Below are positions 12,013 to 53,381 of a stretch of 64,000 bases of DNA, in pieces. Below the pieces are notes generated by a model. It worked only from the letters and a program-made list of their open reading frames with translations. It made no database searches and was not told the origin of the DNA. Each line of letters begins with the position of its first letter. The stretch's first letter is position 1. Source of the stretch: Fibrobacteria bacterium (GTDB taxonomy: Bacteria > Fibrobacterota > Chitinivibrionia > Chitinivibrionales > FEN-1185); contig JBBIGR010000002.1 in NCBI GenBank assembly GCA_037447435.1, positions 64,001 through 128,000 on the forward strand, in the 5' to 3' direction. Made by a program: the position numbers and the translations under genes.

Positions 12013-12093
12013 TCTATATTATTGTATTGGTTCATTTTGCCCTCGAATTTAATTTGTTCCATATTGCCAAACTATCGCAGAAGGAGTCTTGTT

Positions 12094-15000
12094 ATGCGCA
12101 GGGACTGTTTTAAAACGTTCTTTTTTGCTTCCGCCGTGTTCGTCTGCTGGCTTTGCTCCCCGGTTTTTTCCGACGAAGCATTCGACAAATTGATGGATGC
12201 TAAAAATTATTCGGAAGCGATCAACTATGCCGACAAGAAAATCCCGACCACCAACCGCGAAGCCGCAGTATGGGTAAAACTCGGCGTGGCCAACCTCGAA
12301 CTCGGGCTTGCCGAAAAAGCGCTCGCCTGTTATCTGGTTGCTAACCGGATGGACGCAAAAAACTACGATGCATTGCTGGGAAGCGCGAAAGTATATAATT
12401 CCCTTTCGCAACCTGCCAATGCCGCCGCAGCAGCCAAAAAGGCGCTCGACCAAAACTTCACTCCCGAGGCAAGCTGGGAATACGCCCGTGCGTGCATTGC
12501 GCTGAACAAACCGGCCGACGCAAAAAAGGCATTGGAAAAAGTGGCCGAATCCGACCCCAACAATTCGGCCGCAGTCAAAGAACTCGGGCTAATTTACTTT
12601 AACGAAAAAAACTACGCAAAAGCGGTCGACCTTCTTAAAATAGCCAATGTCAAGCAGCCCGATCCCGCGCTCACGCTAAAAATCGGTCTGGCCTACAAGG
12701 AATCCAACGGTCCCGATTCGGCACTTGTCTATCTTAAGGCCGCAAAAGACAAAAAGCCGACCGCTCCCGAAGCGGCATTCGAACTGGCCAAAATTTATTT
12801 CAATACGCAGCAATTCGACAAGGCTGCGGCCGAATTCGAAGACGCATCCGCCAAGATCCAACTCGGTGCGTTCGACTTCTGGGCATGGGGAACATCCTTG
12901 TCAAAAACAAACGGCAATGCCGATAAGATCGTCAAGATATTCCAACAGTCGCTCGATAAGTTCGGCGCATCTAAAAGCAAGGAAGCCCTCGAGGCGCATG
13001 CGGCGGTCGGCACTTATTATCTCGACAAGAAAAACTATCAGGCCGCAGTTTCGCATTTCCAGGCCATTTATGCGGCCGACAGTACAGGCAAGCTCGTGCC
13101 CGACATCAATTTTTCCCTCGCCCTTTGCAGTCAAGGGCTCGATTTGCCCAAAAAAGCCATTGCCCAATTGGAACGCGAGCTTGTCGTAAACAGCGGGAAC
13201 GTCGGCGCCTACGCGATGCTCGGCGACTTGTACGAAAAAGCCGGGCTCGCCGAAAAGGCGAAGGCCGTGTACGAAAAAATGCTCTCGCTCAACCCCAATA
13301 ATCCCAAGATACAAATGGCGCTCGGCGACTATTATCTAAAAGCAAAAAAGCACCAGGAAGCGCTGAAATATTACCAAAAAAGCTACACGCTGGAACGAAG
13401 CGCGCTTGCGGCACAGGGAATGGCGGTCTGCGCCTTTGCGCTCGAACAGCCCGACATGGCGCGCGATGCGGCCGAGAGCGCCTTGCATCTCGATGCCAAT
13501 TTGTGGGAACCCCATGTTGTTTTGTCCAAAATTTACTTAAAAGATAAAAACTTCAAAGACGCCAAAGACCAATTCGAATTCATGGTTAAGAAACAACCGA
13601 ATTCGAAGGAATACTGGCTGCAGCTTGCGGTATGTTACGAACAGCTCAACGACCCGGTCCGGTTGGCCGACATCGATAAAAAAATCATTGCGCTCGACCC
13701 GAAAAACATCGCGTCCCGTACCAGACTTGCCCGTTTTACGTTGTCAATGGGCGATACGAAAGCTGCGATCGAACAATATAAGGAACTTGCCGCTATCGCG
13801 CCCAAAGACGCCGAAGTGTTCAAGAACCTCTACGACTTGTCTGTCAAGAACAATGCTATGACGGAGGCCGCGCAGTATTTGCGTTCCTACGTACTTCTCA
13901 AACCGACCGACGCAAGCGCCCAGAAATCGCTCGGCGACATGCTGTACGACAAAAAAGACAATGCCGGCGCATTGTCCGCGTACCGCGCGGCGGTCAAGGC
14001 CGATCCTGCGATAAAAGGCGTTTACAAAAAGTATATCGAATTGCTCGGTACCGGCGCGGAACCCACGGAATTCGCAAGTGCGCTCAACGGCGCAATCGCA
14101 ACGAGTGAAGCCGATGCGCAAACCTATGCGATGCTCGGCACTATTTTTCTCAAACAGGGACAATGCCCCAAAGCCATAGAAATGTTCCAGAAATCAATTC
14201 AGCTCGATCCGCATAACACGAACGTCCTTACGATGCTCGCCCAATGCCAGGCTAAAACCGGCAACGCGAACGAGGCGATCATTTCGTACGAACAAGCGCT
14301 GGCAATGAACGACAAGGCGGTTGAAGAACTCAAAGCGCTCGGCGATTTATACCAGCAACAATCCAAGACGTCTCAAGCCGTGGCTTCGTATAAGAAATAC
14401 CTGGCAAAAGTTCCGGCAAATTCGAAAATCGCAAAAATCATTGCCGATTACGAATACGGTCAGAAAAATTATACCGAGGCGAATGTTTACTTTGCCAAGG
14501 TTACCGGCGAAACCGCGAAATCAGCGGACATGCTTTTCAAATACGGCCAATCGTGCTATTTGGCAAAAGATTTCAAAAAGGCCAAAGAACTGTATCTGCA
14601 GCTTGCTGCGGTTACCCCGAAAAATGCCGACGTGTTTAAAACGTTGTTCGACATTGTTTCCAAAGACAGCACGGCGAAAACGGAAGCAGTGTCGTATATG
14701 CAAAAGTACGTGGCATTAAAACCCGCCGACGCGTCTGCGCAAAAAGACCTCGGCGACATGCAGTACGACCTTAAAAACAACCTCGCCGCCCTGAGCGCTT
14801 ACCGTGCGGCGCTTGCCGCCGACCCCGCCATAAAGGGTGTTTACAAGAGATACGTCGAGCTCGTCGTGCTCAAGGGCACTTCCGAGGAACTGGTCAAAGC
14901 GCTTACCGGTGCGATCAGCGCCCAGGAAGCCGACGCCGCCATGTACGGGTCCCTCGGTGCCGTATACCAAAAACAGGGTAATTGCGCAAAAGCAATAGAC

Positions 15001-18000
15001 ATGTACCAAAAGGCGATCCAGCTCGACCCGCGAAATACCGCAGTGGTGTCGAGCCTTGCCCAGTGCCAGGCAAAGACCGGCGCGACCAGCGATGCCGTGG
15101 TATCGTACGAGCAGGCCATCGCCTTAAACGACAAGGCCGTCGACGAGCTCAAGGAACTCGGCGAATTATACATTGCCCAGAAAAAAACCGCCCAGGCGGT
15201 GACGATGTTTAAAAAGTACGTCGCGAAAAAACCGTCTGACGTTCGCGTCGCCAAATTTATCGCAGACAACGAATTTTCCCAGAAAAACTATGATGAGGCG
15301 ATCAAATATTACGCAATGGTCACCGGTACTGCGGCGAATTCCGCCGAGTTCCTTTCCAAATACGGCCAATCGTGCTACTTTGTAAAAAACTATAAAAAAG
15401 CAAAAGAACTGTTCGTCCAGCTCGCGACGATTTCGCCGAAAAATGCCGACGTATTTAAAACGTTATACGACATTGCGGAAAAAGATCCCGCAACAAAAGC
15501 CGAATCGCAAACCTATTTGCAGAAATATGTTTCCCTCAATCCGGGTGATGCGTCTGCGCAAAAAGACCTCGGCGACATGCAGTACGATGCAAAGAACCAA
15601 AGTGGCGCCCTTGCGGCGTACCGTGCGGCGATAGAGGCCGACCCGTCGATCAAAGGGATATACAAACGCTATGTCGAATTGGTAATGGCAAAAGGAACGT
15701 CCGAAGAACTTGTCAAGGCGCTTACGGGAGCCATCAAGGCGTCGGAAGCCGATGCCGCGATGTTCGCCTCGCTCGGCGCAGTATACCAAAAGCAACTTGC
15801 CTGGGCAAAAGCCGTGGACATGTATCAAAAAGCAATGCAGGCCGACCCGCGCAACGTTTCCGTTTTGTCGTCGCTTGCGAAATGCCAGGCAAAATCGGGC
15901 AATATCAACGATGCCGTTGTTTCCTATGAACAGGTCGTTGCCATGAATCCTGCGGCAATCGAAGAATCGCAGGAACTCGGCGACCTGTACGCAAAACAGG
16001 GCAAAATGAGTCAGGCAATGGCGATGTACAAAAAATGCCTGGAGAAAAAGCCCGGCGACTATCGTACAGCCAAAGCGGTCGGCGATTTTTCCTATACGCA
16101 GAAGAACTATGATGACGCAATCAAATACTATTCGATGGTTTCCGGGCCCGAAACCAAAAACGCCGATTTCTTGTTCAAATTCGGGCAGTCGTGCTATTTT
16201 TCCAAAAATTACAAAAAAGCGGCGGAGTTGCTCAATCAACTCTCGGCGCTTACGCCGGCAAACGCGGAAATTTACAAAACATTATATGATATCGCCGTTA
16301 AAAACAACGGTACGAAAACCGAACAAATTGCCTATCTCAAGAAATACGTCGCCGTAAAACCCGGTGATGCGCAAATGCAAAAAACCCTGGGCGATTTGCA
16401 GTTCGAGCAAAAAAATTCGGCAGCGGCGATTGCCGCATATAAAGCGGCGATCGCCGCCGATCCCGCGATCAAAGGCTTTTACAAAAACTATGTCGAACTC
16501 GTTTCCGCAAACGGGCTTCCCGAAGATATTGTCAAGGCCATGAAGGGTGCCGTCAATGCGGGCGAAGCGGATGCCGCAATGTACGAAGCGATCGGCGGGC
16601 TCGAACAAAAAGCCGGCGCGTACGCAAAAGCGATGGACTATTATCAAAAGTCTATGCAGCTCGACCCGCGTAACGTCAAGGTCCTTTCGAGCCTCGCGCA
16701 ATGCCAGGCCAAAACCGGCAATGTAAACGACGCGGTCATTTCCTATGAACAGGCGGTTGCGATGAATGCCGATGCGATAGAAGAATACCGCATACTCGGC
16801 GAATTGTACCAGCAGCAGAAAAAGCAGTCGCAATCCATAGCGATGTATAAAAAATATTTGGAAAAACGTCCTTCGAATTATACCGTCGCTTTGGCTGTCG
16901 GCGATTTTGCATACGGCCAAAAAAACTATGAAGATGCGGCCAAATATTATGCCATGGTCGGCGGCGAAATTTCGCGTAAAGCCCCGTTCCTGTTCAAATA
17001 TGCACAATCGTGTTATAACGCGAAAAACAACAAGAAAGCCGTTGAAGTATTGTCTCAACTGGCAACGCTTACGCCGCTTAATGCCGAAGTCTTTAAAATG
17101 CTGTACGACATAACCGTTGCGGATCCGACGACTAAAAAAGACGCCAGCGGGTACCTTAAGAAATATGTAAAGCTCAGTCCTACCGATGCCGCAGCCCAAA
17201 AGAATCTCGGCGATTTGTTGTTCGAAGAAAAAAATACGGTCGGCGCGCTTGCGGCATACAAGGCAGCGCTTACTGCCGATCCCTCTCTCAAGGGTTTTTA
17301 CAAACGATATGTTGAACTGGTTACGACGCAAGGTAATGCCGAGGAAACGGTCAAGGCGTTAAAAGGAGCCATATCCGCAGGCGAAGCCGATGCCCCGATG
17401 TACTTCAATCTCGGCAGCGTCTATCAGAAAGCGGCAAATTATTCAAAAGCGATAGAGATGTTTACAAAAGCGTTGCAGCTCGATGCGCAAAACATGAAAG
17501 CATTGTCTGCGCTTGCTTTGTGTCAGGCAAAATCGGGAAATGTGAAGGAAGCGACAATCACCTATGAACAGGTGGTCGCGCTCGATCCGAATAACGTCTC
17601 GGAACTTCGCGCGCTTGCCGATTTATACCTTCGGCAAAACAAAAACGACCAGGCTATGGGCATGTATAAAAAATGCCTTGAAAAGAACCCGGGCGATTTC
17701 AAGACCGCTATTGCGGTCGGCGACTATTCCTTAAAAATCAAGGATTATGACGCCGCGGTGAAATATTATGCCATGGTCGGCGGTGCCGACGCGAAAACGT
17801 CGGCGTTTTTGCTGAATTACGGCGAAGCGTGCTACAAGAGCAAGACCTGTTCCAAGTCCGTCGATATTTACAAAGAATTATTGGTCCTGACCCCGACCAA
17901 CGCCACGGTCGTTAAAACATTGTACGACATTGCGGTCAAGGCAAATAACACTGCCGACGAGATTGTTTACTTAAAGAAATATGTCGCCCTGAAACCCGGC

Positions 18001-19920
18001 GATGCGCAATCGCAAAAAGACTTGGGCGATTTGCTGTACGATCAAAAAGAAACGTCCGGCGCTCTCTCGGCATACCGTGCCGCCCTTAAAGCCGATCCGT
18101 CGTTAAAAGGCTTTTACAAGCGATATGTCGAACTCGTGACCCCGCGCGGCACACAGGAAGAAATCTCCAAGGCGCTTGCCGGAGCCGCTGCAGCAGGCGA
18201 AGCCGATGCGACGATGTATGCGACGCTCGGTGCAATTTACCAAAAACAGGCTTCTTACGAAAAAGCAATTACGGCGTATCAAAAAGCGTTGTCCCTCGAC
18301 CCTCGTAACATTGCAGTGCTTTCGTCGCTTGCGATGTGCCAGGCAAAGAGCGGCAACACGAACGAAGCGGTTATTTCGTATGAGCAGGCAACAGCCATGA
18401 ACCCCGACGCTGTCGCAGAATACAAGGCGCTCGGCGATTTGTATTCCAAGCAGAACAAAGCCGGCCAGGCGCTTGCAATGTATAAGAAATACCTGGAAAA
18501 AAATCCCAAAGATATGGATGTGGCCAATTCCGTTGGCCAGGCGGCCTTTGCAACCAAGAAATACGACGAAGCAGTGAAATACTTTGCCATGATGTCCGGC
18601 CCGGAAACAAACAGCATGGAATTCCTGTATGTGTACGGCCAATCCTGTTATTATTCGAAAGACTACAAAAAGACCATTGAACTTTTCGAAAAATACAGAA
18701 CAAACAATGCAAAACTCGCGACCAAACATGCGGGTGCAATGACGGTTGCAAAATTACTTGCCGATTCCTACGACAAATCTAACAACAGCGAAAAGGCCCT
18801 TGAACTGTATTCGCTGTATACCAAGACCGCTGCCGGCGCCAAAGACGCCGAAGCCTGCTTCCGACGGGCACAACTTACCGAAGCTTCCAGCCCGGCAACT
18901 GCGGCTAAACTCTATGAAGAGAATACGATATCGTTTCCCAAAGACTATCGCAATTTCCTGTATGCCGGCCTATACTATGCAAAGCAGAAAACAATGCTCG
19001 ATAAAGCGTTGGGTATGATGAAGAAATGTGCCGCGCTTGCCGATTCCATTCCGTCGTTATGGCTGGAAATGGGACAGGTGTACGGAAAACTCGGAAAAGA
19101 CAAGGAAGAACTTGAAGCGTATCGCAAGTTCATCCAACTCGATCCGGAAAACGCCGAAGCCTGCGGAAAAATCGGGGAAATCCTGCTTGCCAAGAAAAAG
19201 ACGAACGACGCCATGGTATTTTTGGAAATGGCCAATGCGCTCAGAGGTAACGACCCGAAATTCATGGTGCTTCTGGCTCAAGGATATCTGACGACCGACC
19301 GTTCCAAGGAAGCACTTGATTTATTGGAAAAGGCCGACAAGGTCAAGCCCGACGACGAAAACGTCAAGAGCATGCTTTTCGAATTATACAAGCAGACCAA
19401 TCAGCCGCAAAAAGCGCTTTCAGCCATTAAGGTAATTGCCGAAAAACGCCGCGACACGAAAACGAAACTCAAATATGCCGAGGCATTATATCTTGCGGGT
19501 TCCTACGCTCTTGCCGAAAGTGCGATTAAAGACATTACGGCAACCGAGCCGGAAAACATCGATGCGCTTATGATTTACGGTAAAACGCAATCGGTGCAGA
19601 ACAAGCTCGACGATGCCTTGGAAACGTACAAAGAAATATCCTATATCAATCCGAATTATGCGCCTGCATTGTACGAACGCGCCGAAATCTACGTTACCCA
19701 AACCAAGATCCAGTGGGCCAAAACGTTTTACGAACGCGCGCTCAAAGCCGATCCTAATTTCGCCCTGGCCGAACTCGGGCTTGCAAAGCTCGCAAAAAGC
19801 CAAAAAGATGTTGCAGGTTATCAGCTCCATCTGGAAAAAGCAAAAAAGCTGGATCCGAACAACAGGCTCATTCTCGATGAAACCGGCGGTGTAGCAAAGC
19901 CAAAAAAAACCGGTAAATAA
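12094..19920 (+). CDS. Giant exported tetratricopeptide-repeat protein (2,608 aa)
   Basis: RBS AAGGAG, signal peptide MRRDCFKTFF...VFS, continuous TPR motifs (LGxxY...A...Y.KA...DP.N). Confidence 0.9.
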   Translation: MRRDCFKTFFFASAVFVCWLCSPVFSDEAFDKLMDAKNYSEAINYADKKIPTTNREAAVWVKLGVANLELGLAEKALACYLVANRMDAKNYDALLGSAKVYNSLSQPANAAAAAKKALDQNFTPEASWEYARACIALNKPADAKKALEKVAESDPNNSAAVKELGLIYFNEKNYAKAVDLLKIANVKQPDPALTLKIGLAYKESNGPDSALVYLKAAKDKKPTAPEAAFELAKIYFNTQQFDKAAAEFEDASAKIQLGAFDFWAWGTSLSKTNGNADKIVKIFQQSLDKFGASKSKEALEAHAAVGTYYLDKKNYQAAVSHFQAIYAADSTGKLVPDINFSLALCSQGLDLPKKAIAQLERELVVNSGNVGAYAMLGDLYEKAGLAEKAKAVYEKMLSLNPNNPKIQMALGDYYLKAKKHQEALKYYQKSYTLERSALAAQGMAVCAFALEQPDMARDAAESALHLDANLWEPHVVLSKIYLKDKNFKDAKDQFEFMVKKQPNSKEYWLQLAVCYEQLNDPVRLADIDKKIIALDPKNIASRTRLARFTLSMGDTKAAIEQYKELAAIAPKDAEVFKNLYDLSVKNNAMTEAAQYLRSYVLLKPTDASAQKSLGDMLYDKKDNAGALSAYRAAVKADPAIKGVYKKYIELLGTGAEPTEFASALNGAIATSEADAQTYAMLGTIFLKQGQCPKAIEMFQKSIQLDPHNTNVLTMLAQCQAKTGNANEAIISYEQALAMNDKAVEELKALGDLYQQQSKTSQAVASYKKYLAKVPANSKIAKIIADYEYGQKNYTEANVYFAKVTGETAKSADMLFKYGQSCYLAKDFKKAKELYLQLAAVTPKNADVFKTLFDIVSKDSTAKTEAVSYMQKYVALKPADASAQKDLGDMQYDLKNNLAALSAYRAALAADPAIKGVYKRYVELVVLKGTSEELVKALTGAISAQEADAAMYGSLGAVYQKQGNCAKAIDMYQKAIQLDPRNTAVVSSLAQCQAKTGATSDAVVSYEQAIALNDKAVDELKELGELYIAQKKTAQAVTMFKKYVAKKPSDVRVAKFIADNEFSQKNYDEAIKYYAMVTGTAANSAEFLSKYGQSCYFVKNYKKAKELFVQLATISPKNADVFKTLYDIAEKDPATKAESQTYLQKYVSLNPGDASAQKDLGDMQYDAKNQSGALAAYRAAIEADPSIKGIYKRYVELVMAKGTSEELVKALTGAIKASEADAAMFASLGAVYQKQLAWAKAVDMYQKAMQADPRNVSVLSSLAKCQAKSGNINDAVVSYEQVVAMNPAAIEESQELGDLYAKQGKMSQAMAMYKKCLEKKPGDYRTAKAVGDFSYTQKNYDDAIKYYSMVSGPETKNADFLFKFGQSCYFSKNYKKAAELLNQLSALTPANAEIYKTLYDIAVKNNGTKTEQIAYLKKYVAVKPGDAQMQKTLGDLQFEQKNSAAAIAAYKAAIAADPAIKGFYKNYVELVSANGLPEDIVKAMKGAVNAGEADAAMYEAIGGLEQKAGAYAKAMDYYQKSMQLDPRNVKVLSSLAQCQAKTGNVNDAVISYEQAVAMNADAIEEYRILGELYQQQKKQSQSIAMYKKYLEKRPSNYTVALAVGDFAYGQKNYEDAAKYYAMVGGEISRKAPFLFKYAQSCYNAKNNKKAVEVLSQLATLTPLNAEVFKMLYDITVADPTTKKDASGYLKKYVKLSPTDAAAQKNLGDLLFEEKNTVGALAAYKAALTADPSLKGFYKRYVELVTTQGNAEETVKALKGAISAGEADAPMYFNLGSVYQKAANYSKAIEMFTKALQLDAQNMKALSALALCQAKSGNVKEATITYEQVVALDPNNVSELRALADLYLRQNKNDQAMGMYKKCLEKNPGDFKTAIAVGDYSLKIKDYDAAVKYYAMVGGADAKTSAFLLNYGEACYKSKTCSKSVDIYKELLVLTPTNATVVKTLYDIAVKANNTADEIVYLKKYVALKPGDAQSQKDLGDLLYDQKETSGALSAYRAALKADPSLKGFYKRYVELVTPRGTQEEISKALAGAAAAGEADATMYATLGAIYQKQASYEKAITAYQKALSLDPRNIAVLSSLAMCQAKSGNTNEAVISYEQATAMNPDAVAEYKALGDLYSKQNKAGQALAMYKKYLEKNPKDMDVANSVGQAAFATKKYDEAVKYFAMMSGPETNSMEFLYVYGQSCYYSKDYKKTIELFEKYRTNNAKLATKHAGAMTVAKLLADSYDKSNNSEKALELYSLYTKTAAGAKDAEACFRRAQLTEASSPATAAKLYEENTISFPKDYRNFLYAGLYYAKQKTMLDKALGMMKKCAALADSIPSLWLEMGQVYGKLGKDKEELEAYRKFIQLDPENAEACGKIGEILLAKKKTNDAMVFLEMANALRGNDPKFMVLLAQGYLTTDRSKEALDLLEKADKVKPDDENVKSMLFELYKQTNQPQKALSAIKVIAEKRRDTKTKLKYAEALYLAGSYALAESAIKDITATEPENIDALMIYGKTQSVQNKLDDALETYKEISYINPNYAPALYERAEIYVTQTKIQWAKTFYERALKADPNFALAELGLAKLAKSQKDVAGYQLHLEKAKKLDPNNRLILDETGGVAKPKKTGK
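13930..18700 (+). repeat. Intragenic super-repeat of 819 bp (273 aa, about 8 TPRs), six copies with the last partial; end coordinate approximate
   Basis: The LGD(M/L) anchor of the QKxLGD motif starts at 13930, 14749, 15568, 16387, 17206 and 18022 (periods 819, 819, 819, 819, 816). Confidence 0.9.
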
Positions 19921-20085: not shown

Positions 20086-21015
20086 ATGAATAAAGGTCGT
20101 AGTTGTCTTTTTGCCGTTATCCTGTTTGCAGCGGGAAGCGTTTTTGTTTGTTCTGCAAAACAGGGCGACGGTCATGCGGTTACAGTTCAGCCAAACGCGG
20201 TACCATCGGCAAAAACAAGCCTTAAAAACAAAATTACCTGGCACGATGGCATCACAGCCCTCAAAGCCGGCGAATTGACAAAAGGCCTTTTGCTTCTCGA
20301 CAGTTTTCGGATGAGCGGTTGCAAAAACGACACTTTCGTGGAACTGTACTCTAAAGAAGCGCTCAATTCGCTTGTGCCGCAAAAGCCCGACTCGGTGGTT
20401 TCCCTTTTTCGTCAATTCACCACCATCGACACCGGACTGTTTAACCCCGCGACCCATTTCTTCACTGTTTCGCAATCGGTCAACAGAAATACATCCAGGA
20501 TAGCGCCGTGTTACACCTACGGCGCCACGTTTGAATTGCGGAAACCCTTCAGGCTGGTTTTTTCCGGTCTGGCGATTACCGAACAAACGGTAATGAATAT
20601 CGGCTTTCATTACGACCCGACGGTCGACGCGTCGCTCAATCGCCAGCGATACGACCGCAAGGACATTGCCTCTTGCAAATTGTACATAGACCTCAGCGCA
20701 ACGCTGGGCTCCCCGATGCAATACATCCGCGACAAAATCAACGGCAAATTCGATTCGATTTCGGTGCGACACGATTTCAGCGACAAACAGGGAATTTCAT
20801 TGCGGTGCATAACGCGGTCCCGTAACAACGACGACGATTCCTATACTGCAATTGCCACCTTCGACAAGATGCTGCCCGACGTGCATACCCATTCCAATCG
20901 CCGGTCCGATACGACCATGACCCTGGTACGCTATACCCTCATCGCGCAATCCTGCAACGGCAATGCCGACCGCATCGAGGCGCGGTTTCTTACCGTACTG
21001 CATAATCTTTTATGA
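20086..21015 (+). CDS. Hypothetical exported protein
   Basis: 309-aa ORF with a hydrophobic N-terminal signal-like segment; no family recognised. Confidence 0.6.
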   Translation: MNKGRSCLFAVILFAAGSVFVCSAKQGDGHAVTVQPNAVPSAKTSLKNKITWHDGITALKAGELTKGLLLLDSFRMSGCKNDTFVELYSKEALNSLVPQKPDSVVSLFRQFTTIDTGLFNPATHFFTVSQSVNRNTSRIAPCYTYGATFELRKPFRLVFSGLAITEQTVMNIGFHYDPTVDASLNRQRYDRKDIASCKLYIDLSATLGSPMQYIRDKINGKFDSISVRHDFSDKQGISLRCITRSRNNDDDSYTAIATFDKMLPDVHTHSNRRSDTTMTLVRYTLIAQSCNGNADRIEARFLTVLHNLL

Positions 21016-22209
21016 TATTTTTTGAGAGGTTTTCTTTTGGAGCTGCAGAAAAACAAAATACCCGCCGATCCAACCGATAGCCCCCAGACCTATCGCCAGC
21101 ACGATACTGCCGAAAAACCACTCTATGCCGCCGTTGATTATTGCGCCATATTTCGAGTGTGATGCGGCAACAACCATATACTGCGGGACAACTATTTTAC
21201 CGATGGCAACCGCTGCCGCAATGATAAAAGGCAAAAACGGGAACGACGAAATGCTGACCCCTAAAAAGGCTAACGGCCTATTGAGCTTAAGTAAAAAGCT
21301 CAGCGCCATGAGTGAAATTACCTGAAACCCGTAAATCGGCAATAACCCGAAAAATATCCCAAAAGACAACGAACTTGCGGCTCGTTTTGGCGTGCTGTGC
21401 GCGTGAAGTTCCCGTTTGAAAAGAGCCAGGATTTTCTCTTTCCACGAGGCACCCGGCATGTCGACGATTAAAAACGGAAGCAGTATTTTTATAAGCGCCG
21501 CCTTCGAATTTACTTTTGATATCCTTAAAAAATCACGTACCGGCCTGAAATGCGACACCCTGTTTTCCCGGGGTTCGTAATGACGATGTACGGGAATGCC
21601 GATTACGGGAATGCCTTGCCAGGCCGCTTTTATCAGAACGTCCTGCTCGTATTCATATCTGCCGCCTTTACATCCGAGTGCGGCGATACGGCTCAGCGGA
21701 TACGCGCGAAACCCCGATTGCGTGTCGGCAATGGCGATACCCGTGAAGAACCTGTACCAGAACGCCCCGAATTTCGCACCGACGGATGACCGCAGAGGCA
21801 TATTGTCTCGGTTTCCCCGCAACGTTCTTTGCCCAATGTAAAGTGCGTCCGGATTTTCCTTTAATTTTTCCGAAAACAGCGGTATGTCCTGCGGATAATG
21901 CTGGCCGTCGGCATCTATGGTAATTGCATGGGTAAAGCCCATGGACGAGGCAGTTTCAAATCCTGCCTTTAAAGCGAATCCTTTTCCGCGGTTTATTTCA
22001 AAATCGACAACGACCAGTCCTTTTACAGAAGACTGCATTCCCCGGATAATTTCTCCGGTAGTATCGGTCGAACCGTCATTGACAATGATAATATCCCGGA
22101 TATGAGGATGCGATTCGTTAACAACCCGCTCTATCGTGAGCGGGTTGTTATACGTCGGGACGATAATTGCGATGCGCACGGGCGAACCGTCGGATTTTGC
22201 CGTGTTCAT
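21010..22209 (-). CDS. Family 2 glycosyltransferase fused to a C-terminal DUF2062 membrane domain
   Basis: IIVPTYNN, VNDGSTD, NRGKGFAL, TIDADGQH, DTQSGFRAYP, SHFRPVRDF; C-terminal STPKRAASSLSFGIFFGLLPIYGFQ. Confidence 0.88.
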   Translation of the reverse strand: MNTAKSDGSPVRIAIIVPTYNNPLTIERVVNESHPHIRDIIIVNDGSTDTTGEIIRGMQSSVKGLVVVDFEINRGKGFALKAGFETASSMGFTHAITIDADGQHYPQDIPLFSEKLKENPDALYIGQRTLRGNRDNMPLRSSVGAKFGAFWYRFFTGIAIADTQSGFRAYPLSRIAALGCKGGRYEYEQDVLIKAAWQGIPVIGIPVHRHYEPRENRVSHFRPVRDFLRISKVNSKAALIKILLPFLIVDMPGASWKEKILALFKRELHAHSTPKRAASSLSFGIFFGLLPIYGFQVISLMALSFLLKLNRPLAFLGVSISSFPFLPFIIAAAVAIGKIVVPQYMVVAASHSKYGAIINGGIEWFFGSIVLAIGLGAIGWIGGYFVFLQLQKKTSQKIS

Positions 22210-22212
22210 GAA

Positions 22213-23511
22213 TTACTTCGAAAGCTTGCGTTTGCGCTGATCGATGACCCGTATTTTTTTTGTGGTTGTTGCGCCGCGATAATGCTTTATGGTGGCCGCA
22301 TTCGACACCAGTACGGGCAATTGCACTCGCGCCTCGGTACGCAAATGGGAAATGATCTTTTCCAAATTCGAAGGCGGCGTCACTGCCTGGATGGTGACCC
22401 GGTCCGATAACGATTCGTCGTCTTCCAGAATTATGACATAATCCTCGATACCGTCTATGGCGTCCATGACATTGGTGATCGCAAGCGGATAAATCGTCGT
22501 GCCTTTGAATTTAATCATTTGAGATTTGCGGCCCATGATGGGCCCGATGCGCAAGGAATTCCTGCCGCAGGCGCACGTACCCGGCACCTTGAAAGTAATA
22601 TCGCCGGTGCGGTACCGTAAAAGCGGAATACCTTCGACGCCGAGCGGGGTAGCGACGAGCTCGCCGACCGCGCCGTCCTCGACGGGATTTCCCACTTCAT
22701 CGACTATCTCGGTATACACGAGTTCCGGATGCGCATGACCGCCGTATTGGGTCGTGCATTCGCAGTACGCGGTCGAAAGTTCGGTCGACGCGTACGTGGA
22801 AAAAACCTTTGCATTATATAATTCCTCGAGCGCTCTGCCGACCGAATTCAATTCCATGTCCTGGTTGCGCAACGCTTCGCCGATGGCGAATATTTTCTGT
22901 ACCGCGGAACCGCGCGTATCGAATCCTTTTTTGTTAAGCTCCTTGGCGAGCTTTAATAAAAACGACGGCACCCCGACGATGACGGTCGGTTTCAGCAATT
23001 CGATATAATGCTGCTGCATGTCGAACGGCAAGACGCCGATGCGGGCGGTATTCGCACCAAGCAACGTAAGTCCCCGATAATACGCCATGCCCGCGATGAA
23101 CAGTCGGTCGAGCGAGGCCAGGATTTGGACCTTGTCTTTGGCCGTGACCCCCGCGGCATGAAACGACAATGCCTCATTAAACGCAAGGCGGTCGATGTCG
23201 GCGGCGGTCATGGAAAAAACCAGCGGCTTTCCGGTAGAACCGGACGTTACTACGGTTTCCACGATTTGCTGCGGCACGACGCCCAGAAACAAATCGACAT
23301 CTTCGACCAGTTCCCGTTTTTCCGTAAGCGGCAGTTTTGCGATGTCCGAAATGGTTTTGATGTCTTCCGGGAAAACATCAAACAGCGAGTTTTGATAATG
23401 GGGAGACACTTCCTTGACATGACGCACCTGGTTGCGCACAGCGCGTACCGAGCGCGATTCTATTTCGTCTACAGACATGAATTCCCACGATAATTCGGGT
23501 CTAAAAACCAA
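22213..23511 (-). CDS. Phenylacetate-CoA ligase-like acyl-adenylating enzyme (PaaK/ANL family)
   Basis: TSGSTGKP, IGEA, STYASTE, PLLRYRTGDI, CACGR, KGTTIYP; TTG start. Confidence 0.85.
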   Translation of the reverse strand: MVFRPELSWEFMSVDEIESRSVRAVRNQVRHVKEVSPHYQNSLFDVFPEDIKTISDIAKLPLTEKRELVEDVDLFLGVVPQQIVETVVTSGSTGKPLVFSMTAADIDRLAFNEALSFHAAGVTAKDKVQILASLDRLFIAGMAYYRGLTLLGANTARIGVLPFDMQQHYIELLKPTVIVGVPSFLLKLAKELNKKGFDTRGSAVQKIFAIGEALRNQDMELNSVGRALEELYNAKVFSTYASTELSTAYCECTTQYGGHAHPELVYTEIVDEVGNPVEDGAVGELVATPLGVEGIPLLRYRTGDITFKVPGTCACGRNSLRIGPIMGRKSQMIKFKGTTIYPLAITNVMDAIDGIEDYVIILEDDESLSDRVTIQAVTPPSNLEKIISHLRTEARVQLPVLVSNAATIKHYRGATTTKKIRVIDQRKRKLSK

Positions 23512-25918
23512 GGATGATACCTCCTGCTGGAAAAAACATCAATTGATACACCGGCGTCGGCGCGGGCCGGGAATCGGCGTAAATTCTGGTCCATATATTT
23601 TTTTGGCCGTATACATTTTGCAAATCAAAATAGTAGATCAGTTGCAAAAAACCAAAGCCAAATCGGCGCTCCCACCGTATATCGAGTTTATGGTATGCAC
23701 CGTACACGTCCGCGTTTAGCGCGGCGTCGGAATCCACATACCATCGACGATACGTTTGATCGTATACCGGCGACGTGTGCGGCCGCGCTCCCAGATACCG
23801 CCATTTCGCGGAAATTTCGTTCCGGTCGCCAATAGGCATCACCCACGACAGCATGGCAAACCAGCGGTGGCGTTTCAGCGCCTGGTACCAGGCATAGCCG
23901 AGCAGTTCTTTTTTCCACCCGCCGCTCAGCGTGACCATCGAGACAAAATCGTAATCGCCCCGGTACCACTCGCCCTCATGGCCCGGCCGCATGTCCTGCA
24001 TTTCCGATTTCGACAGCGAATATGCCGCGCTCCAGGAAAACTCATTTGTCAATTTTTTCTGGGCGAACAATTCCAAACCGTAGCTGCGCCCCTTTCCAAC
24101 CGATACCAGCGTGTTGGACTGGGAAAACCGTTCGGCCGGCGATTTGGACGCATTCGACAAAAGCAACGACGAATCGAGGGGCATGTCCGACATTTTTTTG
24201 TAATATCCCTCGATAATGCATTTGACGCCGGTTCGTTCGAACACATATTCCAGCCCGCCGATACCGATCATGATGTTTTTCGGCTTCAGCCCTCTGTTGA
24301 AATCGGCCTTGACAATATCCGCGTAGTCCGGGTCCTGGTATTGTATGCCGAAGGCGGCTGTCGCCTCCAATGCCGACGACAGCATATACGACGCGCCGAG
24401 CCGGGGCGAAACCGTAACGCTCTTGATATACGGGAACGCGTCGAAACGCAGGCCCGGCATGATGCGGATGCGGCTTGCGGGCCTGACAATGGAAGAAATG
24501 TAGCCGCCGTATTTATACGCGACATCGGCGCCGTGTGCCGCCGATTCCTCGGTAACGGGCTTGCCGTTATTATCATATACGACCGTGCCCGCCGAATCGC
24601 CGGGACCGGCGTATGTTTTTAGGGTGTCGCTGTTTTGCCTGATCTCGATATCGAAATTCGCGCGCTTCACTACGCCGCCGATCATAAGCCTGTTGTTTCC
24701 CGGAAAATCGTAGGCAATTTGGCCTTTAAGCGCCTGTTCTTCTTCGGAAGAGGTATTCTTGTATACCGTGTCCTGGCCCGTGTACTCTAATCTGTCAAAA
24801 GTATTTCCCACCCCCGAAACCGTAAACGATGTCGAAACCGCCTTGGAAACGCTTTGTTCCCATGTCGCTCCCACCGCATAGACCTTGCCGCCCGAAAGTA
24901 TGGTCGACCCGACGGTACCGTACAAGGAATCGGCATTGTCGATTTCAATGCTGTTGTCGCCGTAAACGCCGTTTGCGTACACTTTCGTATCCGCCGTGTT
25001 ATACGCGAGCCTTGCCTGTGCGCCCCAGTATTTCGGAACGGCAACCGCTTCGGTGTTAAACCGGGAATTCGCAATGAAATCCAAATAGCTTTTGGTGGCC
25101 GACACCATGAAATTCGATTGCTTGGTCATCGGACCTTCGGCGTGAAAGCCCAAACCGGCAACGCCCAAATCGACACCGCCCAAAACCATGTCGCTGTTTC
25201 CGTCGCGCAGTTTCACGTCCAAAACCGACGAGGCCTTTCCGCCGTATTGCGCCGGAGGAGCGCCGGCATTGAACGTCAGGCCCTTTACCAGCAACGGATT
25301 GACAAGAGAAATGACCCCGCCGCCGCTGCCCTGTTCGGCAAAGTGGTTTGGGTTCGGTATTTCTATATTGTCCAGAAGAAAGAGGTTTTCGCCCGGCACG
25401 CCGCCCCGGACCACGATTTCATTGGTCTTGTCCCCGCCCGACGCAACACTGGGCAGGTTCTGCACGACACGCTGCACATCCATGATCGCACCGGGCGCAC
25501 GTAAAAGCTCGTCGTAGGTTATGATCTTTGTCGACGACGCCATGTCCGGAGGACGCCGAAAGGCATTTGCACGGACCACCATACGGTCAACCGGTGTCGC
25601 TTTGGCTGCGGGTTCAAGTTCGGCATCAAGCTGTTTTTTCTCCTCGCCCGATACGTACGCGTCGCCGATGAACGTCGCCTCATAATTTGGATGGGAAAAT
25701 AAAACCGAATGGCTTCCCGGCGACACCGAATCGAAAGAATAATTTCCCGACTGGTCCGTGTGCGCGGTACAGGCCGGGGCCGAGACGATCACGAGCACCG
25801 ACGGTATTTTTTTCCCCGTTTGCGCGTTTGTCACCGTGCCGGCAATGATTCCGGCAATCCCCGGGAAATAACAAATCAAACAAAAAAAGCAGATCGTTTT
25901 AAAAAACCGCATGCTCAT
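23501..25918 (-). CDS. TonB-dependent receptor with N-terminal carboxypeptidase-regulatory-like domain
   Basis: Plug motif VRGGVPGENLFLLDNIEIPNPNHF, YGGKASSVL, SPRLG, GRSYGLEL and terminal F. Start set at ATG 25918, an ATGA overlap with the radC stop. Confidence 0.9.
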   Translation of the reverse strand: MSMRFFKTICFFCLICYFPGIAGIIAGTVTNAQTGKKIPSVLVIVSAPACTAHTDQSGNYSFDSVSPGSHSVLFSHPNYEATFIGDAYVSGEEKKQLDAELEPAAKATPVDRMVVRANAFRRPPDMASSTKIITYDELLRAPGAIMDVQRVVQNLPSVASGGDKTNEIVVRGGVPGENLFLLDNIEIPNPNHFAEQGSGGGVISLVNPLLVKGLTFNAGAPPAQYGGKASSVLDVKLRDGNSDMVLGGVDLGVAGLGFHAEGPMTKQSNFMVSATKSYLDFIANSRFNTEAVAVPKYWGAQARLAYNTADTKVYANGVYGDNSIEIDNADSLYGTVGSTILSGGKVYAVGATWEQSVSKAVSTSFTVSGVGNTFDRLEYTGQDTVYKNTSSEEEQALKGQIAYDFPGNNRLMIGGVVKRANFDIEIRQNSDTLKTYAGPGDSAGTVVYDNNGKPVTEESAAHGADVAYKYGGYISSIVRPASRIRIMPGLRFDAFPYIKSVTVSPRLGASYMLSSALEATAAFGIQYQDPDYADIVKADFNRGLKPKNIMIGIGGLEYVFERTGVKCIIEGYYKKMSDMPLDSSLLLSNASKSPAERFSQSNTLVSVGKGRSYGLELFAQKKLTNEFSWSAAYSLSKSEMQDMRPGHEGEWYRGDYDFVSMVTLSGGWKKELLGYAWYQALKRHRWFAMLSWVMPIGDRNEISAKWRYLGARPHTSPVYDQTYRRWYVDSDAALNADVYGAYHKLDIRWERRFGFGFLQLIYYFDLQNVYGQKNIWTRIYADSRPAPTPVYQLMFFPAGGIILGF

Positions 25919-26604
25919 CGTTGTGCCTTCCACCGAGGGAAATCGCTGAGGCTGACTATCGTATCGCGGGCAACGATGACGTGATCCAAAAGCGGCATTT
26001 CAAGTAATTTACAAATATTATACAGCCGTTCGGTGATTTCCCAGTCGGCCGGCGAAGGTTCCGCGGTGCCGCCCGGATGGTTATGCGCAATGATGAGCGA
26101 TGTCGCCTTGTATCGCAACGCTTTATCGATAATGGTGCGGGGATACACGGCGCATTGATTGACCGTTCCCTCGTGGACGATTTCGGTTTCGATCACATTG
26201 TTGCCGTTGTCAAGGAACAGCACCGCGACATATTCGTCCGGCTTATACCCGAAAGCGAACCGCAGGTATTCCTTTACGTCGTTACGATGATGCACAATCG
26301 GTTTTTTATGGTATTTCTCCGCGAGGCAATAGGCGGTCACGTCCCTGAACAATACCAATAAGAGGCCGGCCTTTCTGCCGATCCCGGGGACTTTCTCAAC
26401 GTCCTCGCTGTCGGCGTGCAAAAGCCCGGATAGGGTTTTATATTTGCGCAGCAGTTCTTTTGCAATGGGTTTTGTGTCTTTACGGGGAATCGCAAAGGTC
26501 AATATCAGCTCGACGATTTCATAATCCTGCAGCGACGCGCAGCCGTTTTCTTCGAATCGCGAAAGCAAACGGCCGCGATGTCCGGCATATCCTTCGTCGG
26601 GCAT
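25915..26604 (-). CDS. radC: RadC family (UPF0758) JAB-domain protein
   Basis: GHRGRL, PRKDTKPIAK, HhH motif VPGIG, GTVNQCAVYPR, HNHPGGxxEPSxAD, LLDHVI. Confidence 0.92.
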   Translation of the reverse strand: MPDEGYAGHRGRLLSRFEENGCASLQDYEIVELILTFAIPRKDTKPIAKELLRKYKTLSGLLHADSEDVEKVPGIGRKAGLLLVLFRDVTAYCLAEKYHKKPIVHHRNDVKEYLRFAFGYKPDEYVAVLFLDNGNNVIETEIVHEGTVNQCAVYPRTIIDKALRYKATSLIIAHNHPGGTAEPSPADWEITERLYNICKLLEMPLLDHVIVARDTIVSLSDFPRWKAQR

Positions 26605-26620: not shown

Positions 26621-27943
26621 TTACCACTCGATTGCCAAGGCAGCGATGGTCACCCCTGCCCCAACCGAACACAAGACGATTTTGTCGCCTTTATGCAGAT
26701 CTTTCTGTAATTCCAGTAAAGCAAGAGGAATGCTCGCGCTGGAGGTGTTTCCAACCCTGTCGATATTGATGTAAAACCGTTCGAACGGCACGCCGCCCTT
26801 TTGCGCGGCAGCCTTGAGAATGCGTGCGTTTGCCTGATGAGGAACAACCCAGTTTACATCCTGGGGCAACCATCCGCTTTTTGCCGCAGCTTCCGAGATA
26901 ATGGAAGCAAACCCGCCCGTGGCGAATCGGAACAGGGCATGCCCGGCGGTCCGGATCCAGGGGTTCAGGTTTTCAATGCCGAACGGGATTTTGAACCCGG
27001 GTACCGATCGCTTTGCAAGCAATAAACCCTTGGAATCGGCCTTGAGGACTGCCTGCTTGATTGCATGGCCCGGCCTGCTTCCGCTCACGATGGTTGCGCC
27101 GGCGCCGTCACCGAAGAGGAAATAGGTGCCCATATCTGTTTTGTCAATGAGTTGCGATTGAATTTCCGTACCCACGACCAGGATATTGTCTGCGGCACCC
27201 GATACGATCATGCCGCGCGCCATGGTAAGCGCGTATAGCCAGCCGGAGCAGGCAGCCTTGATGTCGAACGAGGGAATACCTCGTATGCCGAGCAAGTCCT
27301 GCAATATGCAGGCAGTGGACGGCATGGCCACATCCGGAGTCTCGGTCGACACGATGATCCCGCCGATGTCCTTTGCTTCAAGCCCGGAACGCTTGATGGC
27401 CTCTATTGCCGCCTGATACGCCATTTCCGATGGTTTTTCACCTTCTTTTGCCCAACGGCGTTCCCTGATGCCGGTCACGCCGAAAATGTAATCTTCGGTA
27501 ACGGCGGGAAATTCTTTCAATAATTCTTTGCTGGTCACCACACGGTCGGGCAAATAGCCGCCCAATCCTAAAATGCAAACATTACCCGCAACCGTAACGC
27601 TTGGCGAAGGCTGAGCAGGGAGCACGTCGGATTTCTCCACGTCCGATTTCACCGCCTGTGCTGCGGGAATGGAGTTTTTCATGCTCACGTCGCTTGTTTC
27701 AATTTCCAAAACAGCTGCTTCAAACGAAATGGTCTCGCCTTCGACGCACAGCACGCGAACGACGGTTCCGTCACAGGGCGCTTCAAAATCGAACGCAGCC
27801 TTTGCGCTTTCGATTTCACCCAAGATCTGACCTTTTGTAAATTTTGAGCCGACCGACACATTCCACTTCGTAATGGTGGCTTCTGTTTCCGCTGCGGCTT
27901 GGGACGGCAAATACAATGCGATGGTAAATACGTCAGCACTCAC
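26621..27943 (-). CDS. Fusion of a lipoyl domain and beta-ketoacyl-ACP synthase III (FabH-like)
   Basis: N-terminal GEIESAKAAFDFEAPCDG (lipoyl Lys48), A/P/S-rich linker, then TGIRERR, AACSG, FGDGAGA, VPHQAN and GNTSSAS (Cys-His-Asn triad). GTGA overlap with the E1 gene. Confidence 0.9.
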   Translation of the reverse strand: MSADVFTIALYLPSQAAAETEATITKWNVSVGSKFTKGQILGEIESAKAAFDFEAPCDGTVVRVLCVEGETISFEAAVLEIETSDVSMKNSIPAAQAVKSDVEKSDVLPAQPSPSVTVAGNVCILGLGGYLPDRVVTSKELLKEFPAVTEDYIFGVTGIRERRWAKEGEKPSEMAYQAAIEAIKRSGLEAKDIGGIIVSTETPDVAMPSTACILQDLLGIRGIPSFDIKAACSGWLYALTMARGMIVSGAADNILVVGTEIQSQLIDKTDMGTYFLFGDGAGATIVSGSRPGHAIKQAVLKADSKGLLLAKRSVPGFKIPFGIENLNPWIRTAGHALFRFATGGFASIISEAAAKSGWLPQDVNWVVPHQANARILKAAAQKGGVPFERFYINIDRVGNTSSASIPLALLELQKDLHKGDKIVLCSVGAGVTIAALAIEW

Positions 27944-29943
27944 GATTTCTCTCCAATCAATTGTGATAATTCTTTTGCAACCTGCTCACGCGATGGCCGG
28001 TAAAACTGTTCGAGCTCCGCGGCAAACGGTACCGGCATGGGCGGAGCGCTTATCAAAACCGGCTGTTTTTTCAAAAAGGAAAAACATTGCCTGCAAACAT
28101 GAGAAATGATCTGGTCGCCCAACCCGGCGATCTCCGTGCTTTCCTGAACGACAAGCAATTTCCCCGTCTTTTTCACCGATTCCAATATATTATTCAGGTT
28201 GAGCGGCGCCATGACGAAAGGATTCCATATGTCAACCTTCGCCTTGATGTCCTGACTCGCGTTGATTGCAATGTCGCACATGGCGCCGAACGCGACGACC
28301 GTACACTCGTCGCCGTCGGCATATTTGCGTTCCCGCCACACCTTGGCGCAATCGCCGTCGAACCGCACGTCTGTTCCGCGCACGCTGTTGTACAGCAATT
28401 TGTGCTCGAAAACAAAACAAGGGTTGGGGTCGTAAAAACCCGCAACAAGCGCTTCGAACATTTCTTGCGGTGTAAACGGATATAAAAGCTTGACGCCGCA
28501 GAATCGCGACCAAAGCCCTTCGAATTCCCCCGAATGAAACGCGCCCAGGGTGACGCCGCCGCCGCACGGCAAACGGAACAGCACCGGCGCTCCGTTGCCG
28601 CTGCGGAAATACCAGGTGCCGCAATTGAGACCGAGTTGCGTTGCGCATTCGGTTGCAAAATCGGCAAATTGAAATTCGACGATCGGCAGCGCTCCGGCTT
28701 GCGATGCGCCGAGGGCAAAACCGGTTATTGCCGATTCTGCAATAGGCATGTCCATGACGCGGTCGGTGCCGTATTTTTCAAACAGGCCTTTACCTGTTTT
28801 AAATGCGGAACCGTACGGCCCCACATCGAGTCCCAAAAGCGCGGCACGCGGGTTATTGGATAATATATAATCCTGCGCCATGGTCACGGCGTTGATGAAC
28901 TTGACTTTTGTCGCCTGAAACGGCGGGACGGTCCGAGAATGGTCCCCTTCCTTAAAAACGGGCGAATGCCCCAGCGCGACGACCGGATTGGGCCGCGGCG
29001 GAATCAGCGCGGCCTTGACCGCGGCTTCGACTTCGGCCGCAATCGGCTCTTCTATGGCAGCGATGGCATCGTCCGTCAATCCGACGTCCAAAAGTGCGGC
29101 GCGCGCCCGCATCAGCGGTTCGCGTTTGAGCCACTCGTCTTTTTCCTCTTTTGTCACATACTCGGCCTTATCGTAGACCGCATGACCTTCCAATCGCAAT
29201 GTTTGACTTTCAAGAATGAACGGCAGAGACGTTTCGTCCATTTCTGCGAGGGCGTCGCATACGGCGCTGTATACTTCCCAGACGTCGGTGCCGTCTATCG
29301 TTTTGCCGTTGATGCCGTATCCGCGCGCACGCTCCGAAAGGTTTTTGCAATTGTATTGGAGTTTTGTCGGCGTGGAATAGGAATAGTGGTTGTTCTCGAT
29401 AAGAAACAAAACAGGGACCTTACGCACCGAAGCGATATTCACGGATTCGTGAAATTCGCCTTTGCTGCTGCCGCCGTCGCCGATAATGGCCAGGCCGAAG
29501 GCGTCTTCGCCGCCCTGGCGCGCGGCCCAGGTTCCGCCCACGACAACCGAAAGCATATTTGACAAATGACTAATCATGGGAAAACGCCGCATGGCCGCAT
29601 TGCCGTGATGGACATTGCCTTCGCGCGCGTGCGACGGGCTGTCGGCATTGGCGATGTATTGGCAGAACATCTGATAGGGCGTATCGCCCAAAATCATATG
29701 CGCGGCAAAATCGCGTTGCATCAGGGACGTCACATCTTTACCCGGGCGAAGCGGAAGGCTCATACCGACGCTGGTCGCTTCGTTTCCGACGCTCAGAGTA
29801 ACGGTTCCCTTTACATACCGTTTAACGTAAAGTTCATTGAGCTTTTCTTCCATTTTCCGTGAAAGAAACATCCAGGAATAGGCGAGAGGAAGAAAATCCT
29901 CTTTCTTCATTTTTTGCGGATAACGCGGAATTGCGGTATTCAA
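27940..29943 (-). CDS. 2-oxoacid dehydrogenase E1, fused alpha and beta subunits (ThDP-dependent; branched-chain type suspected)
   Basis: GDGGSSKGEFHE...ENN ThDP motif and RLEGH; beta part DMPIAE, EFQFADF, GAFHS, FEHKLLY; TTG start. Confidence 0.9.
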   Translation of the reverse strand: MNTAIPRYPQKMKKEDFLPLAYSWMFLSRKMEEKLNELYVKRYVKGTVTLSVGNEATSVGMSLPLRPGKDVTSLMQRDFAAHMILGDTPYQMFCQYIANADSPSHAREGNVHHGNAAMRRFPMISHLSNMLSVVVGGTWAARQGGEDAFGLAIIGDGGSSKGEFHESVNIASVRKVPVLFLIENNHYSYSTPTKLQYNCKNLSERARGYGINGKTIDGTDVWEVYSAVCDALAEMDETSLPFILESQTLRLEGHAVYDKAEYVTKEEKDEWLKREPLMRARAALLDVGLTDDAIAAIEEPIAAEVEAAVKAALIPPRPNPVVALGHSPVFKEGDHSRTVPPFQATKVKFINAVTMAQDYILSNNPRAALLGLDVGPYGSAFKTGKGLFEKYGTDRVMDMPIAESAITGFALGASQAGALPIVEFQFADFATECATQLGLNCGTWYFRSGNGAPVLFRLPCGGGVTLGAFHSGEFEGLWSRFCGVKLLYPFTPQEMFEALVAGFYDPNPCFVFEHKLLYNSVRGTDVRFDGDCAKVWRERKYADGDECTVVAFGAMCDIAINASQDIKAKVDIWNPFVMAPLNLNNILESVKKTGKLLVVQESTEIAGLGDQIISHVCRQCFSFLKKQPVLISAPPMPVPFAAELEQFYRPSREQVAKELSQLIGEKS

Positions 29944-53109: not shown

Positions 53110-53178
53110 AAGAGAACCTCCTTGTTAGAATGATGGCCATGCGCTAGACATCATTCGGTGACTTTGGCATCCTTGCCA
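53110..53178 (-). promoter_or_regulatory. Structured flagellin 5' leader with CsrA-type site, copy 1
   Basis: mRNA UGGCA-AGGA-UGCCA hairpin, a second hairpin, then ACAAGGAGG Shine-Dalgarno; conserved in copy 2. Confidence 0.75.
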
Positions 53179-53250
53179 TTGAAGCATTTAAGAATCTTTA
53201 ACCGTATCTACTTTTTTCTTTCAAACACAAATCCTCGGTCTCATTAAATA

Positions 53251-53278
53251 CTATCGGCTTTGTGCAAAAACGTCTTTA
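53251..53278 (-). promoter_or_regulatory. Sigma28 (FliA) promoter TAAA-N16-GCCGATAG
   Basis: Matches TAAA...GCCGATAA consensus upstream of flagellin 1. Confidence 0.82.
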
Positions 53279-53324
53279 ATATTTTTCTCCACATTTTTAA
53301 ATAGTTTACGCGGCTATTAAATAG

Positions 53325-53355: not shown

Positions 53356-53381
53356 AAATGAAGCAAATGAATTTGACTAAA

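Follow-up and report, generated by a model that had tools for sequence, protein, structure and literature searches.

In textbook branched-chain fatty acid synthesis, the branched-chain 2-oxoacid dehydrogenase complex (BCKDH) provides free branched acyl-coenzyme A (acyl-CoA), from which a permissive FabH starts the chain. This priming pathway from BCKDH through acyl-CoA to FabH is described in the consulted portions of PMC9328018 and bioRxiv 10.1101/2025.09.03.673897. The BCKDH complex is composed of E1 (alpha2beta2), E2 and E3 components. A different kind of system is of the QncN/QncL type, to which NapB/NapD are reportedly comparable. In QncN/QncL (quinocarcin) and SclQ1-4 (scleric acid), a thiamine diphosphate (ThDP) enzyme loads a lipoyl arm and feeds a carrier-protein pathway without CoA, and an E2-like acyltransferase domain passes glycolyl from a ketose to acyl carrier protein (ACP) for non-ribosomal peptide synthesis (PMC6335953, in part). 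Here we analyse a stretch of 64,000 nucleotides from a Fibrobacteria bacterium (contig JBBIGR010000002.1, positions 64,001 to 128,000; hereafter the window), in which a fused E1 gene overlaps a gene joining a lipoyl domain to a KAS III (type III beta-ketoacyl-ACP synthase). The best explanation of this pair is a 2-oxoacid dehydrogenase with KAS III in place of the E2 acyltransferase core. Judged from the sequences, it is probable that E1 acylates the lipoyl arm, that the KAS cysteine is loaded directly from it and that condensation with malonyl-ACP follows, with no acyl-CoA involved. To our knowledge, acyl-dihydrolipoamide has never been shown to act as a ketosynthase primer.

The gene pair as first read from the sequence is confirmed: the two open reading frames of the initial annotation and their GTGA overlap are present, and Pfam, alignment and an AlphaFold2 model agree on the lipoyl domain, the linker and the complete KAS III with its Cys-His-Asn triad that it had claimed. 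The features are as follows.

27940..29943, minus strand: fused E1 alpha+beta (667 aa, TTG start), ThDP-dependent and BCKDH-like, with GDG155-157...NN184-185, alpha His254, beta Glu403 and His470
26621..27943, minus strand: lipoyl-linker-KAS III fusion (440 aa, GTG start)
27940..27943, minus strand: GTGA stop/start overlap with GGAG upstream, read as translational coupling of E1 and fusion
27695..27928, minus strand: lipoyl domain of E2 type, residues ~6-83 (PF00364, E=3e-11; PDB matches)
27800-27802, minus strand: codon of the predicted lipoyl-Lys48, in the motif EIESAKA (from sequence)
27587..27670, minus strand: flexible linker rich in A/S/V/P, residues ~92-119, no E3-binding domain (PSBD), pLDDT <50
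26624..27583, minus strand: KAS III domain (alignment to E. coli FabH)

Pfam places E1_dh at residues 25-318, Transket_pyr at 347-519 and Transketolase_C at 543-655 of the E1 protein, and Biotin_lipoyl at 12-80, ACP_syn_III at 226-303 and ACP_syn_III_C at 354-440 of the fusion. In the AlphaFold2 model of the latter (pLDDT 85.9, pTM 0.74; alignment of 145 homologs), a beta-barrel (6-83) and a disordered linker (92-119) precede a FabH fold with a root-mean-square deviation (rmsd) of ~2 Å to E. coli FabH; being a single-chain model without fixed interdomain contact, it favours neither docking of the domains nor its absence. The domain-architecture check proposed at the outset (Biotin_lipoyl with ACP_syn_III) returned both Pfam domains in 119/120 best homologs, and the fusion is therefore not due to chance; an assembly artefact as its origin was likewise rejected. 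The sources of close homologs label them Chitinivibrionales. Promoter and terminator scans yielded signals at chance level only.

With BCKDH and FabH together, the module shares the heterotetramer-type E1 with BCKDH-like motifs, the lipoyl arm, a genome-encoded E3 and probably the overall role in priming branched fatty acids. However, it differs from BCKDH in having no E2 acyltransferase domain (no cognate PF00198 core is in the module) and in the fusion of the arm to a condensing enzyme, and therefore would have neither a 24/60-mer core nor obligatory acyl-CoA. The PSBD of complexes of the pyruvate dehydrogenase (PDH) and BCKDH types is not reported by a Pfam scan of the window protein, whereas the layout lipoyl-E3_binding-KAS III occurs in 6/6 Opitutales orthologs scanned and, going by domain order, is that of an E2 with its catalytic core exchanged. 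FabH/KAS III (EC 2.3.1.180) and the fusion have in common the fold, the catalytic triad, N247 and R249 (E. coli numbering) and a pass of NF006829, but the fusion has the N-terminal lipoyl domain, replacements at T28/W32/R36 and a changed pocket, and coexists with a canonical FabH. Unlike QncN/QncL, the module has no PF00198, would deliver to a ketosynthase and would itself form a C-C bond, and none of 164 loci has an acpP-like, fab or E2 gene close to the pair. By its domain content the module is outside the canonical 2-oxoacid dehydrogenase complexes, and by its eroded CoA site the KAS is an atypical FabH. No description of a lipoyl-KAS III fusion was found in the open-access literature searched, a scope outside which most subscription journals fall; the system is apparently a real, conserved and undescribed variant.

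The two halves of the fusion are conserved to a like degree. K48 is invariant in 145/145 aligned homolog rows, and mean identity to the window protein across these rows is 0.67 for the lipoyl domain, 0.69 for KAS and 0.17 for the linker (28-44 residues long). The arm is thus no relic, since conservation of the lipoyl domain equals that of KAS and is not shared by the linker. In the KAS domain, C232/H369/N399 align with C112/H244/N274 of E. coli FabH and are invariant in the 145 rows, and N372 and R374 (N247, R249) are retained. The fusion clears the NF006829 beta-ketoacyl-ACP synthase 3 cut-off (312.5 vs 249 bits) and misses that of TIGR00747 fabH (283.7 vs 292.1 bits). We examined 80 related loci, 51 of the Fibrobacterota/Planctomycetota type and 29 of the Opitutales type, and counted residues where KAS aligned over >270-280 residues in frame with the lipoyl domain (the window and 67/80 loci, after exclusion of those with frameshifts or truncation). 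These two-gene fusions all retain (68/68) the triad C112/H244/N274 as well as N247 and R249, together with a basic residue at each of 214 and 257, K214/R249/K257 being presumably the ACP-docking sites, and C112/N274 and H244/R249 are almost fully retained across fused KAS domains in general.

The CoA site is changed. E. coli FabH binds CoA through T28, W32, R36 and R151 (PMC4606726, in part). The window protein has V148, Y152, V156 and M271 at these positions, and F275 at I155. Neither W32 nor R36 is kept in any of the 68 two-gene fusions, and the full W32+R36+R151 set is found in 0/133 fused KAS domains vs 15/15 canonical FabHs; in the canonical FabHs of carrier genomes all four residues are kept (15/15). 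Also substituted are F87, L142, L189 and F304, which we take to be acyl-pocket residues, by M207, Q262, A310 and V427; these changes suggest a primer larger than acetyl.

The E1 has the features of ThDP-type 2-oxoacid dehydrogenases (GDG...NN motif, catalytic His/Glu), of which GDG/NN and H254 are invariant in 32 aligned alpha halves and E403 and H470 in 43 aligned beta halves. Against the PDB, the alpha half scores best with BCKDH structures, the beta half with the pyruvate dehydrogenase entry 1ik6 and then BCKDH. Its beta motifs EFQFADF and GAFHS (QF, aromatic-HS) are as in aligned BCKDH-type entries, the HLY motif of PDH/acetoin-type E1s in the same genomes is not present, and automatic source annotations are mostly 2-oxoisovalerate dehydrogenase.

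E1 and fusion travel together. Both genes are carried by the same 44 of 121 Fibrobacterota genomes and neither by the other 77, counts in which kin are not independent. The adjacency on which the initial annotation had staked its reading holds in related genomes: E1 is directly upstream of the fusion in 46/46 informative loci (5 further loci have too little upstream DNA), with 0-210 nt between the aligned ends. None of the 29 Opitutales-type loci has an E1 in its vicinity; an orthologous fused E1 (38-43% identity, two in pieces) is found elsewhere in 15/15 Opitutales genomes, with no lipoyl or KAS gene adjoining it (14 loci) and no E2 core match nearby. Five of 151 Verrucomicrobiia genomes have the fusion, and all 5 have the orthologous E1. 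Since no PF00198 match was found in 13 of the 44 carriers (89-100% complete), E2 is not needed. In a second, partly overlapping set, the E2 catalytic domain is missing in 6/35 carriers, an E3-like gene is present in 35/35 (33/35 above the TIGR01350 cut-off) and a second KAS III in 34/35. Other E2s examined mostly adjoin their own E1. A Chitinispirillum metagenome-assembled genome has E1, fusion and E3 and no E2 core, and the top match to the FabH family in seven planctomycete genomes is the fusion itself.

The host genome is 99.6% complete, and the window E1 is the only E1 of its type there. The search of this genome for E2, E3, lipA and fabH, as the initial annotation had advised, found SucB as the sole E2 catalytic domain, in a sucA-sucB-gltA operon (sucA and gltA labels read from sequence); SucB was rejected as cognate E2 because it sits in that operon. 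The E3 that had been expected from elsewhere exists as a stand-alone gene outside the window, above the TIGR01350 cut-off and unlinked to the pair. Also present are lipA, an LplA-like ligase, BirA and GcvH, a canonical fabH as part of the gene group plsX-fabH-fabD-fabG-fabF, and another two genes of the KAS III/type III-like kind. SucB itself (L001:1075-2193, G000:C3) has no detectable E3-binding domain, so lack of a PSBD does not necessarily keep E3 out in this lineage.

These components suggest how the module would work. K48 would be lipoylated by LipA and the LplA-like ligase encoded in the genome. By homology, the E1, whose ThDP motifs are seen, would decarboxylate a 2-oxoacid and reductively acylate the lipoyl arm. 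The arm may then swing on its linker into the KAS tunnel normally taken by the pantetheine of CoA and acylate C232; the invariant residues Y152, V156, F275 and R312 would lie beside it there. Malonyl-ACP would be decarboxylated at H369/N399 of the observed triad and condensed to 3-oxoacyl-ACP, which would enter type II fatty acid synthesis, and the stand-alone E3 is the candidate for reoxidising dihydrolipoamide in trans. The canonical FabH of the fab operon would start straight chains.

The lipoyl-KAS core occurs in at least four architectures: lipoyl-KAS, lipoyl-PSBD-KAS, E1b-lipoyl-KAS and E1ab-lipoyl-KAS. The last, a single-chain E1a-E1b-lipoyl-KAS III triple fusion of ~1,100-1,150 aa, is represented by 41 full-length proteins among 153 examined (three of them seeds) and by 22/29 metagenome loci, many of them near kin; in three such chains the domains were confirmed. 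ESM Atlas clusters most commonly come from Planctomycetota, Fibrobacterota, Verrucomicrobiota and Spirochaetota, and the Atlas also lists a Transketolase_C-lipoyl-KAS form. In an unrooted tree of small sample, one branch (96/95) splits 26 fused KAS domains from 17 stand-alone KAS III. Among E1s (FastTree, 63 rows), the window clade also takes in Opitutales; its sister group is a split E1a/E1b pair, of which one member (L184) belongs to an ordinary E1a-E1b-E2 operon, and the E1s of the triple fusions make up a clade of their own. These topologies fit, without proving it, one origin of lipoyl-KAS with more than one E1 partner.

Single chains of the E1ab-lipoyl-E2cat(-ACP/polyketide synthase) kind have the same E1-lipoyl front end as the triple fusions, among which P0321 nests in the E1 tree, but differ from the fusion in that the E2 catalytic domain is kept; the E2 core of these sister chains shows that different domains can occupy the slot behind the lipoyl domain. 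Among such proteins, P0355 continues from the E1ab-lipoyl front end into an E2cat-ACP-KS-MT-C-A hybrid of polyketide synthase and non-ribosomal peptide synthetase, P0367 into E2cat-ACP, and P0326 has a thioesterase in the slot; P0294 is a triple fusion with additional KR and ACP domains. It is possible that P0355, P0367, P0321, P0326 and P0294 are loading modules for 2-oxoacid-derived starters. A separate family of KAS III-SDR/KR fusions (~895 aa, P0124-P0160) was also seen, two of which are named Terriglobales/Bryocella.

If the mechanism holds, the likeliest substrate, and a reasonably probable one, is a branched-chain 2-oxoacid (3-methyl-2-oxopentanoate, 2-oxoisovalerate) giving rise to anteiso and iso fatty acids; two things point to it, the BCKDH-like E1 and the richness of two cultured carriers in anteiso-C15:0. 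Chitinispirillum alkaliphilum carries the fusion (KMQ51893.1), and the relevant part of PMC4814513 gives ai15:0 as its dominant fatty acid, with straight-chain acids listed for Chitinivibrio and Fibrobacter. Pelagicoccus mobilis also carries it (locus L083) and is anteiso-dominated, with aiC15:0 (PMC13274419, in part). Two families in our sample have neither gene (f2, 0/7; f8, 0/46; not matched to species names). Other Opitutales, not scored for the fusion, are branched-acid-rich as well, according to portions of PMC10288369 and PMC12193912. The broadest claim, that lipoyl-primed KAS is a widespread, single-origin, CoA-independent fatty-acid start with at least four architectures and two E1 clades, and the main anteiso/iso source in Chitinivibrionales, Opitutales and anaerobic Planctomycetota, is put forward tentatively, and we doubt it slightly more than we believe it.

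Several observations weigh against this picture. The change of the CoA site is partial in the window subfamily, where position 32 is Tyr, able to stack adenine, and R151 is retained in 21/42; R36 is retained in 20/41 triple fusions. W32 is missing in 4/6 divergent stand-alone KAS III too, so its loss is not fusion-specific. The window subfamily is without PSBD, four OFOR-type genes in the host genome could make acyl-CoA primers, and GcvH is another client of LipA/E3 in 5/5 genomes checked. In one genome of Verrucomicrobiia (G300), the E1 ortholog is present and no fusion was detected. The E1 reaches no NCBIfam E1 cut-off, and its pocket is not identical to that of BCKDH, with Thr and His/Gln at the equivalents of F85 and Y113, following what we take to be the human BCKDH numbering. 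The fatty-acid link consists of two species, both carriers of the fusion. An ilv/leu operon adjoins the pair in 1/164 loci only and is therefore treated as anecdotal; in that genome (G133, without an E2 core; L203:1105-8882, G133:C11), ilvB-ilvN-ilvC-leuA-cimA-ilvE lies directly upstream and co-oriented with E1 and fusion.

Four other explanations have been considered. The KAS domain may be a transacylase only, moving the lipoyl-bound acyl group through C232 to CoA or holo-ACP as a substitute for E2, with condensation taking place elsewhere. FabH does have an acyl-CoA:ACP transacylase side activity, the Tyr at position 32 and the partial retention of R151 leave some CoA binding possible, and most carriers have a second KAS III. 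Transfer of a lipoyl-bound acyl group to ACP has a precedent in QncL/SclQ4 (PMC6335953, in part). We nevertheless regard this explanation as unlikely: the CoA site is eroded, not kept, and the invariant decarboxylation residues H244/N274 with N247 and R249 would be superfluous for pure transacylation. An alternative that keeps the CoA-free route has an aromatic or otherwise bulky 2-oxoacid priming a specialised lipid of the aryl-polyene/flexirubin-like kind. The enlarged acyl pocket, an E1 pocket that differs from that of BCKDH and the KR and ACP domains of P0294 are in its favour, as are neighbouring genes: an FlxY/PaaK-like ligase (33/164 loci, all Fibrobacterota, some repeating a genome) and GT2-DUF2062 (22/164) downstream, and, 5-14 kb upstream in 3/4 congeners, an aromatic ammonia-lyase with an acyltransferase-like gene (presumably LpxL-like; no NCBIfam match at 1e-25). 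However, no FlxY-like, GT2 or lyase neighbours were found in Planctomycetota, Opitutales or triple-fusion loci, the Opitutales genes lie among housekeeping genes (pyrG-kdsA; kdsC-lpt), and the ligase and lyase score below flexirubin cut-offs; this alternative is, if anything, marginally less likely than the transacylase. A flexirubin cluster as general context was rejected, as its neighbours are confined to Fibrobacterota and its ligase and lyase are below those cut-offs.

More conventionally, an ordinary E2, here SucB, might serve E1 in producing free acyl-CoA; the lipoyl domain would then be a tether or relic and the KAS a normal FabH primed by acyl-CoA. An E2 core is present in 31/44 carriers, and SucB and E3 are in the host genome. 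This explanation is improbable in view of the 13/44 carriers without an E2 core, the placement of SucB in its own operon and of most other E2s next to their own E1, a lipoyl domain as conserved as KAS with its invariant Lys, and the eroded CoA site. The initial annotation had also allowed for a biotinylated Lys48. A biotinyl carrier delivering carboxyl groups could draw on the breadth of PF00364, which spans both carrier types, and on weak matches to biotinyl domains in the PDB. Yet the top PDB matches are E2 lipoyl domains; the motif among members is (E/D)SAK, ESDK or mostly EADK, with Lys in 108/109 and never an MKM-like context, so the fusion lacks the (A)MKM-type motif of biotin carriers, of which that of the host genome reads EAMKL; PSBD follows the domain in Opitutales; and in triple proteins the domain is fused to E1. 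On the strength of the lipoyl-type motif, the E2 matches and the Opitutales PSBD, the lipoyl assignment stood and biotin carrier identity was rejected, leaving it a scarcely credible option.

Should direct priming from the lipoyl arm be true, the separate BCKDH, acyl-CoA and FabH steps would collapse into arm-to-cysteine channelling, the primer would be kept away from the catabolic CoA pool, and branched fatty acids in bacteria without E2 could be explained. The module would also be a compact engineering tool for branched biofuels or polyketide starters and, under the broadest claim above, one or two genes would make up a portable cassette for starting branched lipids or polyketides. The cultured carriers Chitinispirillum alkaliphilum and Pelagicoccus mobilis exist.

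Downstream of the pair, one further block was recorded.

21010..26604, minus strand: RadC, TonB-dependent receptor, FlxY/PaaK-like acyl-CoA ligase and GT2-DUF2062, a co-oriented downstream block

This block is probably lineage synteny outside the core module. Scattered flexirubin/aryl-polyene-like genes, all below flexirubin cut-offs, are found at 21010-25933 of the window and, for the aromatic ammonia-lyase, on another contig (L206:2043-3632). Elsewhere, the genome has a cluster (L205:3375-6608; G000:C23:8374-11607) of genes for a FabF-like KS, a ketosynthase with weak likeness to StlD/DarB and a FabD-like protein, close to which lies a small, divergent ACP-like gene. In Opitutales, both genes look as if inserted into one housekeeping block, with the fusion located after pyrG(-kdsA) and the E1 before kdsC-lpt (L088-L101, L058-L086; labels read from sequence). 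Other parts of the window encode a 2632-aa protein (12022-19920), apparently rich in TPR repeats, that begins like a signal peptide and contains long internal repeats, and two near-identical tandem flagellin-like genes of 290 aa each (52237-54254) beside a possible flagellin-modifying gene (50491-52125). A 304-aa ORF at 1633-2547 has two similar halves (DPFTG...PT(L/I)DH..P) and is possibly a tandem HNH-like nuclease.

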